Source: Escherichia coli (GTDB lineage: Bacteria; Pseudomonadota; Gammaproteobacteria; Enterobacterales; Enterobacteriaceae). From it: 64,000 nt of DNA. This document shows, piece after piece, positions 1,323-32,513 of the stretch (the first letter of the stretch is position 1; every line of letters starts with the position of its first letter). Location: NCBI RefSeq assembly GCF_048403405.1, contig NZ_CP183129.1; one strand, given 5' to 3'. The position numbers were made by a program, and so were the translations under genes. The notes beneath the pieces are model-generated. The model made no database searches. It saw nothing but the letters and a program-made list of their open reading frames with translations, and was not told the DNA's origin.

Positions 1323-2342
1323 ATGTCGATGATAAAAAGCTACGCCGCAAAAGAGGCTGGCGGCGAACTGGAACTTTATGAGTACGATCCCGGTGAACTG
1401 AAGCCACAAGATGTTGAAGTGCAGGTGGATTACTGCGGGATCTGCCATTCCGATCTGTCGATGATCGACAACGAATGGGGATTTTCACAGTATCCGCTGG
1501 TTGCCGGGCATGAGGTGATTGGGCGCGTGGTGGCACTCGGGAGCGCCGCGCAGGATAAAGGTTTGCAGGTCGGTCAGCGTGTCGGGATTGGCTGGACGGC
1601 GCGTAGCTGTGGTCACTGCGATGCCTGTATTAGCGGTAATCAGATCAACTGCGAGCAAGGCGCGGTGCCAACAATTATGAATCGCGGCGGCTTTGCCAAG
1701 AAGTTGCGTGCGGACTGGCAATGGGTGATCCCACTGCCAGAAAATATTGATATCGAGTCCGCCGGGCCGCTGTTGTGCGGCGGTATCACGGTCTTTAAAC
1801 CACTGTTGATGCACCATATCACTGCTACCAGCCGCGTTGGGGTAATTGGTATTGGCGGGCTGGGGCATATCGCTATAAAACTTCTGCACGCAATGGGATG
1901 CGAGGTGACAGCCTTTAGTTCAAATCCGGCGAAAGAGCAGGAAGTACTGGCGATGGGTGCCGATAAAGTGGTGAATAGCCGCGATCCACAGGCACTGAAA
2001 ACTCTGGCGGGGCAGTTTGATCTCATTATCAATACTGTGAACGTCAGCCTCGACTGGCAGCCTTATTTTGAGGCGCTGACGTATGGCGGTAATTTCCACA
2101 CCGTCGGTGCGGTTCTCACGCCGTTGCCGGTTCCGGCCTTTACGCTGATTGCGGGCGATCGCAGTGTCTCTGGCTCTGCTACCGGTACACCTTATGAGTT
2201 GCGTAAGCTGATGCGCTTTGCCGCCCGCAGCAAGGTTGCGCCGACTACCGAACTGTTCCCGATGTCGAAAATTAACGACGCCATCCAGCATGTGCGCGAC
2301 GGTAAGGCGCGTTACCGCGTGGTGTTGAAAGCCGATTTTTGA
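1323..2342 (+). CDS. ahr: NADPH-dependent aldehyde reductase, Zn-dependent alcohol dehydrogenase family
   Basis: ORF 1281-2342; start set at [11 protein letters not shown] (339 aa). Zn-ADH motifs GHEVIGRVV and CGHCDAC, and GIGGLGH dinucleotide fold. Confidence 0.9.
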
Positions 2343-2345
2343 AAA

Positions 2346-2909
2346 TCATTCGCAGCGCTGATCTGAGGCGCTGCCCTCTTTCGCACATATTCTGTTTTGT
2401 CGTATCGCCAGCACAGCCTGCCGACATTGTTCGGTGACATTGGCAATATCATGGTTGATATCAATGCGCACAATATCCTGCTCATCTTCTTGTGGACGCT
2501 CCAGTGCCTCAAACTGACTTTTTAGTAACGCTACCGGCATAAAATGCCCAGCCCGACGCTGCATTCGCGCGAGAATAGTTTCATAGTCGCCATCTAACCA
2601 GAGGAAATGAACATGGGGGCTACCCTTGCGTAAAATATCACGATACTGTTTTTTTAATGATGAACAGACAATAAATCCTGTTTCATTCTTTTTATAAAGA
2701 CTGTATGAAGCATCATTTAAGCGTTCCAGCCAGGGAAGTCGATCTTCATCAGATAATGGAATACCCTGCGACATTTTATCTATATTTTTGGCTGGATGAA
2801 GATCGTCACCATCAATAAATTTAGCAGATAATAACGCGGCAACCTTGCTACCAATTAATGTTTTACCACTCCCTGAAACGCCCATCAAAATAAAGCTTTC
2901 ACCCGCCAT
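2346..2909 (-). CDS. idnK: Gluconate kinase (thermosensitive, GntII system)
   Basis: 187-aa ORF with P-loop GVSGSGKT near the N-terminus; divergent from idnD. Confidence 0.9.
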   Translation of the reverse strand: MAGESFILMGVSGSGKTLIGSKVAALLSAKFIDGDDLHPAKNIDKMSQGIPLSDEDRLPWLERLNDASYSLYKKNETGFIVCSSLKKQYRDILRKGSPHVHFLWLDGDYETILARMQRRAGHFMPVALLKSQFEALERPQEDEQDIVRIDINHDIANVTEQCRQAVLAIRQNRICAKEGSASDQRCE

Positions 2910-3010
2910 TTAAAATCTCCTGAATCATCTTACCTGCTGTGATACTACGCCTGGTGGCATAATAATTTCACGTTTTTTTATTTCTGCTGATAAGAATTAC
3001 AAGGCACATC

Positions 3011-3026
3011 ACGTTATGCGTAACAT
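3011..3026. promoter_or_regulatory. Candidate GntR/IdnR operator in the idnK-idnD divergent promoter region
   Basis: ACGTTATGCGTAACAT is a near-perfect 16-bp palindrome resembling the ATGTTAC-N2-GTAACAT operator class of GntR/IdnR (LacI family). Confidence 0.4.
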
Positions 3027-3125
3027 AGTAATGTAACAATTTTCTAACGTGATCTTCATCACAAATAATGACAATTAAAACCGCTTAAATGCTTCCGAGG
3101 TGTCTACCTGACCAGTGAGAAATTT

Positions 3126-4157
3126 ATGCAAGTGAAAACACAGTCCTGCGTTGTTGCAGGCAAGAAAACTGTTGCCGTTACCGAGCAGACGATAGATTGG
3201 AATAATAATGGAACATTAGTACAAATAACCCGAGGTGGAATTTGCGGTTCCGATTTACATTATTATCAGGAAGGAAAAGTAGGTAATTTCATGATAAAGG
3301 CACCGATGGTGTTAGGTCATGAAGTTATCGGTAAAGTTATTCATAGCGACTCATCAGAATTACATGAAGGGCAAACGGTAGCCATTAATCCGTCTAAACC
3401 GTGCGGTCACTGCAAATACTGCATTGAACATAACGAGAATCAGTGTACAGATATGCGTTTTTTTGGCAGTGCCATGTATTTCCCTCATGTTGATGGTGGT
3501 TTTACCCGTTATAAAATGGTCGAAACGTCGCAATGTGTCCCTTATCCGGCCAAAGCTGACGAAAAGGTTATGGCTTTTGCCGAACCTTTAGCCGTCGCGA
3601 TTCATGCCGCACATCAGGCCGGCGAGTTACAGGGCAAGCGAGTATTTATTTCTGGTGTTGGGCCCATTGGCTGCCTGATTGTCAGTGCTGTGAAAACACT
3701 GGGGGCCGCGGAAATTGTCTGTGCCGATGTGAGTCCCCGTTCCCTTTCGCTGGGCAAAGAGATGGGGGCGGAGGTGCTCGTAAACCCACAAAACGACGAC
3801 ATGGATCACTGGAAAGCGGAAAAAGGCTATTTCGATGTCAGCTTTGAAGTGTCCGGTCATCCTTCATCAGTGAATACCTGTCTGGAGGTCACTCGTGCAC
3901 GCGGCGTAATGGTGCAGGTAGGTATGGGAGGCGCGATGGCAGAATTCCCAATGATGACATTGATTGGTAAGGAGATTTCACTCAAAGGCTCTTTCCGTTT
4001 TACCAGCGAATTTAATACCGCAGTGTCATGGCTGGCGAATGGCGTTATCAATCCACTGCCTTTACTGAGTGCTGAATATCCCTTCACTGACCTGGAAGAG
4101 GCGCTACGTTTCGCCGGTGATAAAACCCAGGCAGCAAAAGTCCAGCTTGTTTTCTAA
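3126..4157 (+). CDS. idnD: L-idonate 5-dehydrogenase (Zn-dependent dehydrogenase)
   Basis: 343-aa ORF; GICGSDLHYY and GHEVIGKV Zn-ADH motifs; first gene of idnDOTR. Confidence 0.9.
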   Translation: MQVKTQSCVVAGKKTVAVTEQTIDWNNNGTLVQITRGGICGSDLHYYQEGKVGNFMIKAPMVLGHEVIGKVIHSDSSELHEGQTVAINPSKPCGHCKYCIEHNENQCTDMRFFGSAMYFPHVDGGFTRYKMVETSQCVPYPAKADEKVMAFAEPLAVAIHAAHQAGELQGKRVFISGVGPIGCLIVSAVKTLGAAEIVCADVSPRSLSLGKEMGAEVLVNPQNDDMDHWKAEKGYFDVSFEVSGHPSSVNTCLEVTRARGVMVQVGMGGAMAEFPMMTLIGKEISLKGSFRFTSEFNTAVSWLANGVINPLPLLSAEYPFTDLEEALRFAGDKTQAAKVQLVF

Positions 4158-4180
4158 GAGATAAATAAAGGAATAATACA

Positions 4181-4945
4181 ATGAACGATCTATTTTCACT
4201 GGCAGGAAAAAATATCTTGATTACCGGTTCAGCACAGGGCATTGGCTTTTTACTGGCAACCGGCCTGGGTAAATATGGCGCACAAATAATTATTAATGAT
4301 ATTACTGCCGAACGCGCAGAACTTGCTGTAGAAAAACTCCACCAGGAGGGTATTCAGGCCGTTGCCGCACCTTTTAATGTTACTCATAAACATGAAATTG
4401 ATGCCGCCGTTGAACATATCGAAAAGAACATCGGCCCCATTGATGTGCTGGTGAATAACGCCGGTATCCAGCGCCGTCATCCTTTTACTGAGTTCCCTGA
4501 ACAAGAGTGGAATGATGTGATCGCAGTAAACCAGACCGCCGTGTTCCTGGTATCGCAAGCGGTAACTCGTCACATGGTTGAACGCAAGGCAGGTAAAGTT
4601 ATTAATATTTGCTCGATGCAAAGCGAACTGGGACGTGACACCATCACCCCTTATGCCGCATCGAAAGGGGCGGTAAAAATGCTCACCCGCGGCATGTGCG
4701 TCGAGCTGGCGCGCCACAATATTCAGGTCAACGGTATTGCGCCGGGCTATTTCAAAACAGAAATGACTAAAGCACTGGTTGAGGACGAAGCCTTCACCGC
4801 CTGGTTGTGCAAACGGACCCCCGCCGCACGCTGGGGAGATCCGCAGGAACTGATTGGTGCTGCGGTGTTCCTTTCTTCAAAAGCCTCTGATTTCGTAAAC
4901 GGCCACCTGTTGTTTGTTGATGGCGGCATGTTAGTGGCTGTTTAA
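4181..4945 (+). CDS. idnO: 5-keto-D-gluconate 5-reductase (short-chain dehydrogenase/reductase)
   Basis: 254-aa ORF; TGSAQGIG Rossmann motif and YAASKGAV (YxxxK) catalytic motif. Confidence 0.9.
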   Translation: MNDLFSLAGKNILITGSAQGIGFLLATGLGKYGAQIIINDITAERAELAVEKLHQEGIQAVAAPFNVTHKHEIDAAVEHIEKNIGPIDVLVNNAGIQRRHPFTEFPEQEWNDVIAVNQTAVFLVSQAVTRHMVERKAGKVINICSMQSELGRDTITPYAASKGAVKMLTRGMCVELARHNIQVNGIAPGYFKTEMTKALVEDEAFTAWLCKRTPAARWGDPQELIGAAVFLSSKASDFVNGHLLFVDGGMLVAV

Positions 4946-5009
4946 CAGCCACCACCCTACGTGCAGCGCGAAAGCGCTGCTTTTCTGGCACTAATAAGAG
5001 ATAAAGACT

Positions 5010-6329
5010 ATGCCATTAATCATTATTGCGGCAGGCGTCGCGCTGCTTCTTATCCTGATGATCGGCTTTAAAGTTAACGGCTTTATTGCCCTCGTTCTGG
5101 TAGCTGCCGTCGTCGGATTTGCCGAAGGGATGGATGCACAGGCCGTCCTGCACTCTATACAAAATGGTATCGGCAGCACGCTCGGCGGGCTGGCAATGAT
5201 CCTCGGTTTCGGGGCCATGTTAGGCAAGCTGATTTCTGATACGGGCGCGGCACAACGTATCGCCACTACGCTGATTGCTACTTTTGGTAAAAAACGCGTG
5301 CAATGGGCGCTAGTGATCACCGGTCTGGTTGTGGGCCTCGCCATGTTTTTTGAAGTGGGTTTTGTCCTGCTGTTGCCGTTGGTATTTACCATCGTGGCAT
5401 CATCTGGATTACCCCTGTTGTATGTTGGCGTACCGATGGTAGCAGCGCTCTCTGTAACCCACTGTTTTCTGCCGCCACATCCAGGGCCTACTGCCATCGC
5501 GACTATCTTTGAGGCTAATCTCGGAACGACTTTACTGTATGGATTTATCATTACCATTCCGACAGTTATTGTCGCAGGACCGCTGTTTTCTAAACTGCTA
5601 ACTCGCTTTGAGAAAGCACCACCGGAAGGCTTATTTAATCCTCATCTGTTTAGCGAAGAGGAGATGCCCTCCTTCTGGAACAGTATTTTCGCTGCCGTGA
5701 TCCCGGTCATCCTGATGGCTATCGCCGCCGTTTGTGAAATTACGTTACCGAAAACTAACGCCGTGCGCCTCTTCTTTGAATTTGTCGGTAACCCTGCCGT
5801 TGCGCTGTTTATTGCCATTGTTATTGCGATTTTCACACTGGGCCGACGTAATGGACGCACCATCGAGCAAATCATGGATATCATTGGGGATTCTATAGGC
5901 GCTATCGCGATGATTGTGTTTATTATCGCTGGCGGCGGCGCGTTTAAGCAGGTATTAGTAGATAGCGGTGTCGGGCAGTATATTTCACACTTAATGACCG
6001 GAACTACACTTTCGCCGTTATTGATGTGCTGGACTGTTGCGGCGCTGTTGCGTATCGCTCTGGGCTCTGCCACCGTCGCGGCCATTACCACCGCGGGTGT
6101 GGTGTTGCCGATTATCAACGTTACCCATACCGATCCCGCTTTAATGGTACTGGCAACCGGTGCGGGCAGCGTGATCGCATCACACGTAAACGACCCTGGC
6201 TTCTGGCTATTTAAAGGGTATTTTAATCTGACGGTTGGTGAAACGTTGCGTACCTGGACGGTGATGGAAACCCTTATTTCTATTATGGGTTTGCTGGGCG
6301 TGTTAGCCATTAACGCCGTATTGCACTGA
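5010..6329 (+). CDS. idnT: L-idonate/5-ketogluconate/gluconate transporter (GntP family permease)
   Basis: 439-aa highly hydrophobic ORF; position in the idn operon. Confidence 0.9.
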   Translation: MPLIIIAAGVALLLILMIGFKVNGFIALVLVAAVVGFAEGMDAQAVLHSIQNGIGSTLGGLAMILGFGAMLGKLISDTGAAQRIATTLIATFGKKRVQWALVITGLVVGLAMFFEVGFVLLLPLVFTIVASSGLPLLYVGVPMVAALSVTHCFLPPHPGPTAIATIFEANLGTTLLYGFIITIPTVIVAGPLFSKLLTRFEKAPPEGLFNPHLFSEEEMPSFWNSIFAAVIPVILMAIAAVCEITLPKTNAVRLFFEFVGNPAVALFIAIVIAIFTLGRRNGRTIEQIMDIIGDSIGAIAMIVFIIAGGGAFKQVLVDSGVGQYISHLMTGTTLSPLLMCWTVAALLRIALGSATVAAITTAGVVLPIINVTHTDPALMVLATGAGSVIASHVNDPGFWLFKGYFNLTVGETLRTWTVMETLISIMGLLGVLAINAVLH

Positions 6330-6394
6330 AAGAATAAAATATTGTGATGTAGTTTCGGGGGAAGATTGAAGATTCCCCGACGTTGGGAGAAGTT

Positions 6395-7393
6395 ATGCGC
6401 AATCACAGAATTTCTTTACAGGATATCGCTACGCTGGCTGGCGTAACAAAAATGACCGTGAGTCGTTATATCCGCTCGCCGAAAAAGGTGGCAAAGGAAA
6501 CAGGCGAGCGCATCGCCAAAATTATGGAAGAGATCAATTATATCCCTAATCGCGCTCCCGGCATGTTGTTGAATGCACAAAGTTATACCCTCGGTATCTT
6601 GATTCCGTCATTTCAAAATCAACTCTTCGCTGACATTCTCGCGGGAATAGAATCCGTCACCTCTGAGCATAATTATCAGACCCTTATTGCTAATTACAAT
6701 TACGATCGCGATTCCGAAGAAGAGTCGGTGATTAACCTGCTCTCTTATAACATTGACGGGATTATACTTTCGGAAAAATATCACACCATCAGGACGGTGA
6801 AATTTCTGCGTTCAGCCACCATTCCGGTCGTGGAATTGATGGATGTACAGGGAGAACGGCTGGATATGGAGGTCGGTTTTGATAATCGGCAGGCCGCTTT
6901 TGACATGGTGTGTACCATGCTGGAGAAGCGAGTCAGGCACAAAATTCTGTATCTCGGTTCCAAAGATGACACCCGCGATGAACAGCGTTATCAGGGGTAT
7001 TGCGATGCGATGATGCTGCATAATCTTTCCCCATTACGCATGAATCCACGCGCCATCTCATCCATTCATTTAGGAATGCAGTTAATGCGTGATGCCCTTA
7101 GCGCAAACCCGGATTTAGACGGTGTATTTTGCACCAATGACGATATTGCGATGGGTGCGCTTCTGCTGTGCCGCGAGCGAAACCTCGCCGTGCCAGAACA
7201 AATTTCCATTGCGGGTTTTCATGGGCTGGAGATTGGCAGGCAAATGATCCCAAGCCTCGCCAGCGTAATTACTCCCCGTTTTGATATTGGTCGGATGGCC
7301 GCCCAAATGTTGCTGAGCAAAATTAAGAATAACGATCACAACCACAACACTGTTGACCTCGGGTATCAGATTTATCACGGTAACACGCTTTAG
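6395..7393 (+). CDS. idnR: LacI-family transcriptional regulator of the idn operon
   Basis: ORF 6383-7393; start chosen at MRNHR (332 aa). N-terminal [24 protein letters not shown]. Confidence 0.85.
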
Positions 7394-29598: not shown

Positions 29599-29738
29599 AA
29601 GGAGTCCCTCCGCACTGTCTGAAACAGTACAGAAATGTCTTCAGGCGTGGCGAAGCCTTACCTGAAGGTAATAAAGCTGAGCTGGGACGTTAAAACGTCA
29701 CGGCCTTACGCATCCGGTAACGCCGTGAAAAGACGGGC

Positions 29739-29792
29739 TTACCGGAAAAGTTTTAATCTCCGTCGAGGGAGAGGCGTGGGATCAGGTTCCAT
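29739..29792 (-). CDS. mgtL: mgtA leader peptide (proline-rich)
   Basis: 17-codon [20 protein letters not shown] in the leader upstream of mgtA. Confidence 0.8.
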
Positions 29793-29976
29793 ATAACCTC
29801 CGGTAAGTGAAAAAAGCGCCGCAAATAATAAGGAGAATCCAATAATATTCGTAGCATCTATGGCGATATAATACCTGCTGGCAACTAAACCAACGATAAA
29901 CCAGACTTTACCCATTGCTGAATGCACGGGTAAAGTTAGGCTCAAATAATTAAACAACACGTTACGGGACAACAGG

Positions 29977-30924
29977 ATGCAAAATCGGCTGACCATCAAA
30001 GACATCGCGCGCTTAAGCGGCGTGGGGAAATCTACGGTTTCCCGGGTGCTGAATAACGAAAGCGGCGTGAGCCAGCGCACGCGCGAGCGTGTTGAAGCAG
30101 TGATGAATCAGCATGGATTTTCCCCTTCCCGCTCTGCGCGCGCTATGCGTGGTCAAAGCGATAAAGTGGTCGCCATCATTGTTACCCGTCTGGATTCGTT
30201 GTCAGAAAATCTCGCCGTTCAAACCATGCTGCCAGCGTTCTATGAACAAGGTTACGACCCAATCATGATGGAAAGTCAGTTTTCCCCGCAATTAGTTGCC
30301 GAACATTTGGGGGTGCTGAAACGGCGTAATATCGACGGCGTAGTGCTGTTCGGTTTTACCGGCATAACAGAAGAAATGTTAGCCCACTGGCAGTCATCGC
30401 TGGTTCTGCTGGCGCGTGACGCAAAAGGCTTTGCTTCGGTCTGTTATGACGACGAAGGGGCAATCAAGATCCTGATGCAACGGCTGTATGACCAGGGACA
30501 TCGTAATATCAGTTATCTCGGCGTGCCGCATAGTGACGTGACGACCGGTAAGCGACGTCACGAAGCCTACCTGGCGTTCTGCAAAGCGCATAAATTGCAT
30601 CCCGTTGCCGCTCTGCCAGGGCTTGCTATGAAGCAAGGCTATGAAAACGTAGCAAAAGTGATTACGCCTGAAACTACCGCGTTACTGTGCGCAACCGACA
30701 CGCTGGCACTTGGCGCAAGTAAATACCTGCAAGAGCAACGCATCGACACCTTGCAACTGGCGAGCGTCGGTAATACACCGTTAATGAAATTCCTCCATCC
30801 GGAGATCGTCACCGTTGATCCCGGTTACGCCGAAGCTGGACGCCAGGCGGCCTGCCAGTTGATCGCGCAGGTAACCGGGCGCAGCGAACCGCAACAAATC
30901 ATCATCCCCGCCACCCTGTCCTGA
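29977..30924 (+). CDS. treR: Trehalose operon repressor (LacI family)
   Basis: 315-aa ORF; N-terminal HTH TIKDIARLSGVGKSTVSRVLNN. Confidence 0.9.
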   Translation: MQNRLTIKDIARLSGVGKSTVSRVLNNESGVSQRTRERVEAVMNQHGFSPSRSARAMRGQSDKVVAIIVTRLDSLSENLAVQTMLPAFYEQGYDPIMMESQFSPQLVAEHLGVLKRRNIDGVVLFGFTGITEEMLAHWQSSLVLLARDAKGFASVCYDDEGAIKILMQRLYDQGHRNISYLGVPHSDVTTGKRRHEAYLAFCKAHKLHPVAALPGLAMKQGYENVAKVITPETTALLCATDTLALGASKYLQEQRIDTLQLASVGNTPLMKFLHPEIVTVDPGYAEAGRQAACQLIAQVTGRSEPQQIIIPATLS

Positions 30925-30963
30925 TCGTTTCCTGAACGATAAATTGTGATCTTCGCTGCGTTT

Positions 30964-30977
30964 CGGGAACGTTCCCG
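30964..30977. promoter_or_regulatory. Candidate TreR operator in the treB promoter
   Basis: Perfect 14-bp palindrome CGGGAACGTTCCCG; a second inverted repeat ATCGTT-N5-AACGAT lies at 30924-30940. Confidence 0.5.
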
Positions 30978-31042
30978 TTTTTAAATTTTTCCGCGCAATA
31001 TATTCTGCAGCCAACCAAAAATGTCATCTGCCATGGGGCTTT

Positions 31043-32464
31043 ATGATGAGCAAAATAAACCAAACGGATATCGATCGGTTGATTGAACTGGTCGGCGGGC
31101 GCGGCAATATTGCGACAGTGAGCCACTGTATAACTCGCCTGCGCTTTGTCCTCAACCAACCGGCCAATGCCAGACCGAAAGAAATTGAGCAACTCCCCAT
31201 GGTGAAAGGCTGTTTCACCAATGCCGGGCAATTTCAGGTGGTAATTGGCACCAACGTGGGTGATTACTATCAAGCACTGATAGCGTCAACCGGACAGGCG
31301 CAGGTTGATAAAGAGCAGGTAAAAAAAGCCGCACGGCAGAATATGAAATGGCATGAGCAGTTGATCTCTCATTTCGCGGAGATCTTCTTCCCGTTGCTGC
31401 CCGCGTTGATTAGTGGTGGTTTGATCCTCGGTTTTCGCAATGTGATCGGCGATTTGCCCATGAGCAACGGTCAGACGCTGGCGCAAATGTACCCTTCCCT
31501 GCAAACGATCTACGATTTTCTGTGGTTGATCGGTGAAGCGATCTTCTTCTACCTACCGGTCGGGATTTGCTGGTCAGCGGTGAAAAAAATGGGCGGTACA
31601 CCGATCCTCGGTATCGTGCTTGGCGTAACGCTGGTTTCTCCACAGCTGATGAACGCTTATCTGCTCGGGCAGCAGCTGCCGGAAGTATGGGACTTTGGCA
31701 TGTTCAGCATCGCCAAAGTGGGCTATCAGGCGCAGGTGATCCCGGCACTGTTAGCCGGGCTGGCGCTGGGCGTTATTGAAACTCGTCTTAAGCGCATCGT
31801 GCCGGATTACCTCTATCTGGTGGTGGTGCCCGTCTGTTCGCTGATCCTCGCGGTGTTCCTCGCCCATGCGCTGATTGGTCCGTTTGGTCGCATGATTGGC
31901 AATGGCGTTGCCTTTGCGGTACGTCACCTGATGACCGGCAGCTTTGCTCCGATTGGCGCGGCATTGTTTGGCTTCCTGTACGCCCCGCTGGTGATCACCG
32001 GCGTACATCAGACCACGCTTGCTATTGATTTGCAGATGATTCAAAGCATGGGTGGTACGCCAGTGTGGCCGCTGATTGCGCTGTCGAATATCGCTCAGGG
32101 CTCCGCCGTGATAGGTATTATCATTTCCAGCCGCAAGCACAATGAACGCGAGATCTCCGTGCCTGCCGCTATCTCCGCCTGGCTTGGAGTCACTGAGCCT
32201 GCTATGTACGGCATCAACCTGAAATATCGCTTCCCGATGCTGTGCGCGATGATTGGTTCTGGTCTGGCAGGATTGCTATGCGGCCTGAACGGCGTTATGG
32301 CGAATGGCATCGGCGTAGGCGGCCTGCCGGGAATTCTCTCGATTCAACCGAGCTACTGGCAGGTGTTTGCGCTGGCAATGGCTATCGCCATCATCATCCC
32401 GATTGTACTCACCTCGTTTATCTATCAGCGGAAATACCGCCTGGGCACGCTGGACATTGTTTAA
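31043..32464 (+). CDS. treB: PTS trehalose-specific EIIBC component
   Basis: 473-aa ORF; N-terminal EIIB phospho-cysteine motif SHCITRLRF followed by the membrane EIIC domain. Confidence 0.95.
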   Translation: MMSKINQTDIDRLIELVGGRGNIATVSHCITRLRFVLNQPANARPKEIEQLPMVKGCFTNAGQFQVVIGTNVGDYYQALIASTGQAQVDKEQVKKAARQNMKWHEQLISHFAEIFFPLLPALISGGLILGFRNVIGDLPMSNGQTLAQMYPSLQTIYDFLWLIGEAIFFYLPVGICWSAVKKMGGTPILGIVLGVTLVSPQLMNAYLLGQQLPEVWDFGMFSIAKVGYQAQVIPALLAGLALGVIETRLKRIVPDYLYLVVVPVCSLILAVFLAHALIGPFGRMIGNGVAFAVRHLMTGSFAPIGAALFGFLYAPLVITGVHQTTLAIDLQMIQSMGGTPVWPLIALSNIAQGSAVIGIIISSRKHNEREISVPAAISAWLGVTEPAMYGINLKYRFPMLCAMIGSGLAGLLCGLNGVMANGIGVGGLPGILSIQPSYWQVFALAMAIAIIIPIVLTSFIYQRKYRLGTLDIV

Positions 32465-32513
32465 TTTTCTTCGGGGCGCAATTGCGCCCCCTCGCATTTG
32501 CAGGAATAACGTA

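Follow-up and report, generated by a model that had tools for sequence, protein, structure and literature searches.

A predicted TreR operator between a putative CRP site and a weak -35 hexamer in the treB promoter of Escherichia coli

The treR-treB locus and the elements of its spacer

The window analyzed here, a stretch of 64,000 nucleotides, is E. coli chromosome and shows 100% identity to E. coli chromosomes. Annotated E. coli records give the gene order as mgtA, mgtL, treR, treB, treC, and nrdD. The open reading frame at 29977..30924 on the plus strand codes for a protein of 315 amino acids and is named treR in identical E. coli records; its product is the trehalose repressor, a member of the LacI/GalR family. 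Homologues of this protein carry the Pfam domains PF00356 (helix-turn-helix), PF00532, and PF13377, the latter two being periplasmic-binding-protein-like. The effector domain of TreR has been solved (4XXH); it was the only TreR entry among the solved structures searched in a copy of the PDB, and no TreR-DNA complex was found among them. The regulated gene, treB, occupies 31043..32464 on the plus strand as an open reading frame that identical records annotate as the PTS trehalose transporter IIBC, and the operon runs on into treC. The magnesium riboswitch of the mgtA leader (Rfam RF01056, 125.8 bits) was detected at 29692-29807 on the opposite (minus) strand, just upstream of treR, where it is expected. 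Among the 5433 E. coli matches to the treR-treB segment, 3 were on plasmid-labelled records, and a few genomes carried two copies.

The treR stop codon (TGA, 30922-30924) and the treB start codon (ATG, 31043) are separated by a spacer of 118 bp, in which no Rfam family was found. From the stop codon onwards, the order of its elements is TGA-TCGTT-TCCTG-AACGAT-AAAT-TGTGATCTTCGCTGCGTTT-CGGGAACGTTCCCG-TTTTTAAATTTTTCCGCGCAATATATTCTG. The predicted TreR operator is the 14-mer CGGGAACGTTCCCG at 30964..30977, to which no strand is assigned and which contains the conserved core GGGAACGTTCCC at 30965-30976. It is a perfect palindrome of two 7-nt arms (CGGGAAC and GTTCCCG) around a central C30970-G30971, and it thus belongs to the even palindromes described for the LacI/GalR family (PMC4052901). 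A gene for a regulator of the same family, treR, lies directly upstream of the spacer that holds it. The site is found 66-79 bp ahead of the treB start codon. Its downstream edge borders on the -35 position, and the conserved -10 follows at 24 nt. A sequence-only reading of this DNA had described a perfect 14-mer palindrome here with a central CG and its end 65 nt before treB, and all of this was confirmed.

Across the whole window there are 5 perfect palindromes of this length, compared with 5.0 +/- 2.3 in dinucleotide-preserving shuffles, so that one is unremarkable by itself; only 1.25% of the shuffles of the 142-nt region 30901-31042 contain one. Elsewhere in the window the 14-mer has no good second copy, its remaining matches having 3 mismatches and occurring at the number expected by chance. 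The sequence-only reading had also placed a second inverted repeat, ATCGTT-N5-AACGAT, immediately after the treR stop and 25 bp upstream of the 14-mer. This repeat does exist on the plus strand at 30924..30940 (arms 30924-30929 and 30935-30940); however, its first base coincides with the final A of that codon, and the gap to the 14-mer is 23 nt. Inverted repeats with 6-nt arms and a gap of 0-10 nt appeared in 31% of the shuffles of region 30901-31042, so the upstream repeat is at chance level as a pattern. Since symmetry alone is weak evidence for the 14-mer and none for the upstream repeat, function was judged from context and conservation, and it is by position and conservation, not by symmetry, that the 14-mer stands above chance.

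Between the two repeats lies a half-site for CRP (cAMP receptor protein), which the earlier reading had left unmentioned. The CRP consensus is TGTGA-N6-TCACA, and on this basis a CRP site, without an assigned strand, was predicted at 30942..30963. Its left half, TGTGA (30945-30949), is invariant. The right half, CTGCG, is degenerate: in E. coli it agrees with the consensus at 1 of 5 positions, and the complete 22-mer agrees at 14 of 22 (counted by hand). A consensus scan revealed no consensus sigma-70 promoter in the spacer, as is expected of an activator-dependent promoter. The -35-like hexamer TTTTTA (30978..30983, plus strand), which is a poor match, abuts the operator within a conserved T-tract and lies 17 bp upstream of the conserved -10; the TTTT at 30978-30981 is 90-100% conserved (n=72). 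In the -10 region (30999..31006, plus strand), TATTCT at 31001-31006 represents the conserved TAnnnT register, and TATATT at 30999-31004 is an overlapping alternative present in E. coli and Citrobacter. Judged from the -10, transcription would start near 31011-31014. The operator centre (30970.5) would then lie near -42.5 with the -10 at 31001-31006, in a range of -40.5 to -43.5, the inferred start carrying an uncertainty of about 3 nt. The centre of the CRP 22-mer (30952.5) would lie at -60.5 to -61.5 with a start at 31013-31014 and at -58.5 with the -10 at 30999-31004, a choice that moves every position by about 2-3 nt. The canonical class I position of CRP is near -61.5.

Conservation of the spacer and its recurrence beside TreR orthologues

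With an alignment of TreR proteins, 80 loci, one per species, were retrieved from Enterobacteriaceae genomes, and their treR-treB spacers were extracted and aligned. The aligned set comprised 72 distinct spacers, including that of the window, and identity at each position was scored against the E. coli sequence. The mean identity (n=72) was 0.72 at the treR coding end (30900-30921), 0.49 over the upstream repeat (30924-30940), and 0.45 both in the stretch downstream of the palindrome (30978-30998) and in that downstream of the -10 (31005-31030). It reached 1.00 over TGTGATC (30945-30951) and again over the 12-mer core (30965-30976), each of which was invariant in 72 of 72 spacers. These two stretches of the spacer stand out from a background of about 45%, with the upstream repeat counting as background. 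All 72 spacers have the core at an offset of 20 nt from TGTGA. In 69 of them a TAnnnT hexamer is found 24 nt past the core, as TATTCT in E. coli and as TAGGCT, TACTCT, TAGGAT, or TACGCT elsewhere. The treB leader, from the -10 to the ATG, is longer than that of E. coli by about 70 nt in Kluyvera and relatives (L075, L078, and L080) and by about 130 nt in L056.

The pair of bases that flanks the core is C..A in 60 of the 72 spacers, C..G in 10, T..A in 1, and C..T in 1. The outermost C-G pair is absent from the 60 spacers with C..A; the constrained unit is therefore the 12-mer core, and the perfect 14-mer is restricted to a few species, E. coli among them. As far as the alignment indicates, the functional unit is the core plus flanks and not the perfect 14-mer as such. 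Within E. coli, an identical operator segment was present in 5010 of 5419 genomes and an identical upstream-repeat segment in 4927 of 5419. Variation within the species thus does not tell the two segments apart.

More distant TreR orthologues, 41-49% identical, were obtained by searching the representatives of clusters at 50% identity and looking up their contigs; every one of them has a gene for a PTS EIIBC (treB) directly downstream. Two of their spacers (L083 and L088) contain TGGGAACGTTCCCA. In another lineage (L084/85), the spacer reads TGTGATATTGATCTCAACAC-GGGAACGTTCCC-ATTTTT, in which TGTGA-N15-GGGAACGTTCCC gives the same 20-nt offset as in E. coli; the CRP site there, TGTGA-N6-TCTCA, has a better right half than that of E. 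coli. In the L086/87 loci (2744-2896), beside a TreR orthologue of 45% identity, the operator is present as two imperfect copies, TGGGAACGATTCCA and TGGGAACGTTACCA, which are 49 bp apart. Judged by this arrangement, the locus has a version of the switch with two operators, and between the copies stands a further perfect palindrome, GATCGTACGATC. Among the orthologues, the recognition-helix residues K18-S19-T20-V21-S22-R23 are invariant at an overall identity that falls to 35-48%, and so are the hinge residues S53, A54, R55, M57, and R58. An invariant reading head together with an invariant DNA word is the picture expected of a cognate operator. A by-product of the analysis is the definition of the functional unit as a 12-mer core, with a constant offset of 20 nt to a CRP half-site and conserved far outside Enterobacteriaceae.

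Several loci are rearranged. In two Enterobacter species, about 1.8 kb with two minus-strand open reading frames (159 and 230 amino acids) separates treR from the treB promoter (L035, E. chuandaensis, 1614-3300; L046, E. quasihormaechei, 3949-5700). In both, the CRP half-site and the palindrome remain on the treB side of the insertion, and in L046 the palindrome is absent directly after treR. In Escherichia sp. E1V33 (L004) and E. whittamii (L005), an intact treR of 315 amino acids abuts nrdD (3001-6622), with no treB, treC, CRP site, or operator; judged at the treR locus, the repressor appears orphaned. These rearrangements indicate that the palindrome belongs to the treB promoter and not to the 3' end of treR. 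A remnant resembling the treR 3' end precedes the CRP site in L035, a sign that sequence may have been duplicated where the insertion took place.

One locus from a Logan assembly (L082) was discarded as a bisulfite-like artefact: it has nearly no C on the plus strand, reads TTTTGGGAATGTTTTT for TTTCGGGAACGTTCCC, and its translation differs from the query. An operator-like 12-mer inside treR (about 30071-30082, with 2-3 mismatches; GCGAACGCACCC in most relatives) was likewise rejected. Roughly 25 species have it at a distance of about 894 nt upstream from the operator, and it encodes the conserved SERTR segment of the helix-turn-helix DNA-binding domain, and its conservation is explained by coding.

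Alternative readings of the two repeats

The upstream repeat had been put forward as a second TreR operator, an assignment that the comparison does not bear out. Its arms stand 5 nt apart with no central CG, it matches the operator half-sites poorly, and it is conserved at about the background level (0.49 versus 0.45). A G-to-T change disrupts it in one E. coli strain (L002), and most genera have unrelated sequence in its place. The best 14-nt registers of the repeat agree with the operator at only 9 of 14 (30920-30933) and 7 of 14 (30931-30944) positions, counted by eye, and a uniform-base estimate gives about 0.26 chance matches at 9/14 per 120 nt. The reading in which both repeats are TreR operators, with the upstream repeat or the 9/14 pseudo-site at 30920-30933 as an auxiliary site that cooperates with the 14-mer and perhaps loops across the CRP site, can draw on the two treBC operator sites that RegulonDB lists according to PMC3505978, on a LacI-TreR chimera that behaves as if able to loop (PMC3505978), on the two operator-like sites 49 bp apart in the distant L086/87 lineage, and on GAACG and CGTTTCC in the upstream region, which resemble fragments of the operator half-site. 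We nevertheless consider it very improbable, as no second positionally conserved operator-like site was found between treR and treB in 77 core-carrying loci with up to 3 mismatches allowed, and RegPrecise gives one site per regulon. Weak, E. coli-specific TreR binding at the repeat is conceivable, but sequence comparison lends it no support, and on sequence grounds the repeat should stay unannotated as an operator. It could instead act in RNA, as a small hairpin at the 3' end of the treR mRNA that serves as a stabiliser or weak pause and is no DNA-binding site. The predicted fold (-5 kcal/mol, z -2.3) is in line with this, as are two pairs that change on both sides in Escherichia and Citrobacter (T-A to C-G and C-G to T-A) with G-U wobbles tolerated, 83% of cells paired in these genera versus 19-61% when the partners are slid, and unrelated strong hairpins (z -2.8 to -4.4) in the same place in Leclercia, Silvania, Kluyvera, and Yokenella. 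On the other hand, the median z across the 72 spacers is -0.2, with only 16 of them below -1.5; covariation as high was reached in 10 of 500 shuffles and is within the reach of related sequences that have no structure; no T-run follows the stem; and two members of the clade (L002 and L016) lack the hairpin. We consider the hairpin less likely than not. The repeat is therefore listed as a candidate weak hairpin, confined to Escherichia and Citrobacter, and not as a conserved operator; it is at most a weak, clade-specific RNA structure at the treR 3' end. A structure that joins both repeats was not significant in the 75-nt fold (-16 kcal/mol, z -1.3).

The 14-mer itself could be read, primarily or additionally, as the intrinsic terminator of treR or as a TreR roadblock that insulates treBC from constitutive treR read-through. 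The consensus scan marked CGGGAACGTTCCCG followed by TTTTTAAATT as terminator-like, with a 5-pair stem, a 4-nt loop, and a T-run; this is the first such element past the treR stop, and the TTTT right after the palindrome is the well-conserved one described above. The pattern of a Rho-independent terminator, a GC-rich stem-loop with a T-run, is thus present, but neither excess stability nor conservation of structure over sequence was found. The 5-bp stem (-7 kcal/mol, z -0.82) is no better than shuffles and lacks its closing C-G pair in 60 of 72 species. The rest of the stem and the ACGT that would form the loop never vary, and about 80 loci yielded no compensatory change. Moreover, in L046 no palindrome follows treR, in both L035 and L046 it stays with treB, and the conserved T-tract is explained equally well as a -35 region. 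A different behaviour is seen in the treB-treC spacer, where a perfect 18-mer palindrome, GGGGCGCAATTGCGCCCC (32473-32490, fold -16 kcal/mol), sits between the treB stop (32462-32464) and the treC ATG (32514). In about 70 Enterobacteriaceae its GC stem is kept, its loop occurs in about 20 variants, and a few stems are compensatory (GGGGTGC/GCACCCC and GGGGCCAA/TTGGCCCC). This palindrome looks like a conserved intercistronic RNA hairpin, which perhaps protects the treB 3' end or sets the treB:treC ratio. It varies as an RNA structure does and the operator does not, which argues against termination as the main function of the operator; the comparison offers a way to separate a protein-read palindrome from an RNA hairpin. 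We regard the terminator or roadblock reading as unlikely. Equally doubtful is a double duty of the E. coli palindrome, as TreR-binding DNA at the treB promoter and as an RNA hairpin with a U-run and/or a TreR roadblock that stops treR read-through. If it were true, treR's own transcription would be kept from leaking into treBC, and the E. coli-specific G at 30977 with the lengthened T-run would represent a lineage-specific strengthening of a terminator.

The predicted switch and its known counterparts

The assignment of the 14-mer to TreR, a LacI-family repressor, which the sequence-only reading had offered as a candidate, is strongly supported. The anatomy and position of the site, the invariance of its core (n=72), its fixed spacing from the CRP half-site, and its recurrence beside distant TreR orthologues were all observed, and they agree with the databases cited in the literature. 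With high confidence, CGGGAACGTTCCCG is predicted to be the TreR operator of the treBC promoter, placed between the CRP site and the weak -35. Horlacher and Boos, in 1997, reportedly footprinted TreR directly at the treBC operator and saw the binding relieved by trehalose-6-phosphate. Every sequence-level feature of a LacI-family operator (PMC4052901) is found in the 14-mer. The TreR operator of treBC is already known biology (RegulonDB, RegPrecise), and the TreR(1) regulog in RegPrecise comprises 8 regulons with 8 sites in Enterobacteriales. Trehalose-6-phosphate is listed as the effector of TreR (PMC3505978, Table 1, citing Horlacher & Boos 1997), and trehalose as its anti-inducer (bioRxiv 10.1101/2025.04.02.646877, citing Horlacher & Boos 1997).

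In the proposed mechanism, the helix-turn-helix motifs of a TreR dimer would read the two GGGAAC half-sites and the hinge helices the central CG. The CRP site, of class I type and centred at about -60, would activate the promoter, with the operator lying between it and the weak -35. Because the operator is centred at about -42, bound TreR would occupy the DNA needed by the alpha C-terminal domain and sigma region 4 of RNA polymerase. Occupancy by TreR would in this way block the CRP-dependent recruitment of RNA polymerase or its initiation, presumably by occlusion, and trehalose-6-phosphate would release the repressor. The upstream repeat would have no part in this switch. Beyond annotation the result has little importance: it describes a textbook-style switch by which trehalose uptake would respond to the sensing of trehalose-6-phosphate and to catabolite control.

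A literature text search with the operator or upstream-repeat sequence, and for the treB promoter or TreR operator, returned nothing relevant to E. coli. The closest known system is the E. coli treBC TreR operator itself (Horlacher & Boos 1997, J Biol Chem 272:13026), which is the same locus with the same sequence (the K-12-derived DH1 is identical over 30953-30988), and nothing substantive distinguishes it from the 14-mer site described here. Nearly identical, too, is the palindrome of the CebR/CelR box of actinomycetes (TGGGAGCGCTCCCA), although the regulator, the effector (cellobiose), and the phylum differ; the likeness is a resemblance only and implies no shared regulation. An occurrence of GGGAACGTTCCC in Streptomyces scabiei is presumably a variant of the CebR box. 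This exact string was found in the text available from one paper, which deals with the elicitor transporters of that species (PMC9953190).

With PurR-purF and the symmetric LacI operator, the predicted TreR site has in common a dimeric repressor, inverted half-sites, a central CG contacted by the hinge helices, and an allosteric small-molecule effector (PMC4052901). A difference is the half-site GGGAAC, which is specific to TreR. The hinge differs as well, as the translation of treR has Met57 at the position occupied by leucine in LacI and PurR. The hinge leucines in question are Leu56 of LacI and Leu54 of PurR. Finally, the TreR operator is placed upstream of the -35 and overlaps it, in the interval that separates activator from polymerase, whereas lac O1 is located downstream of the transcription start.
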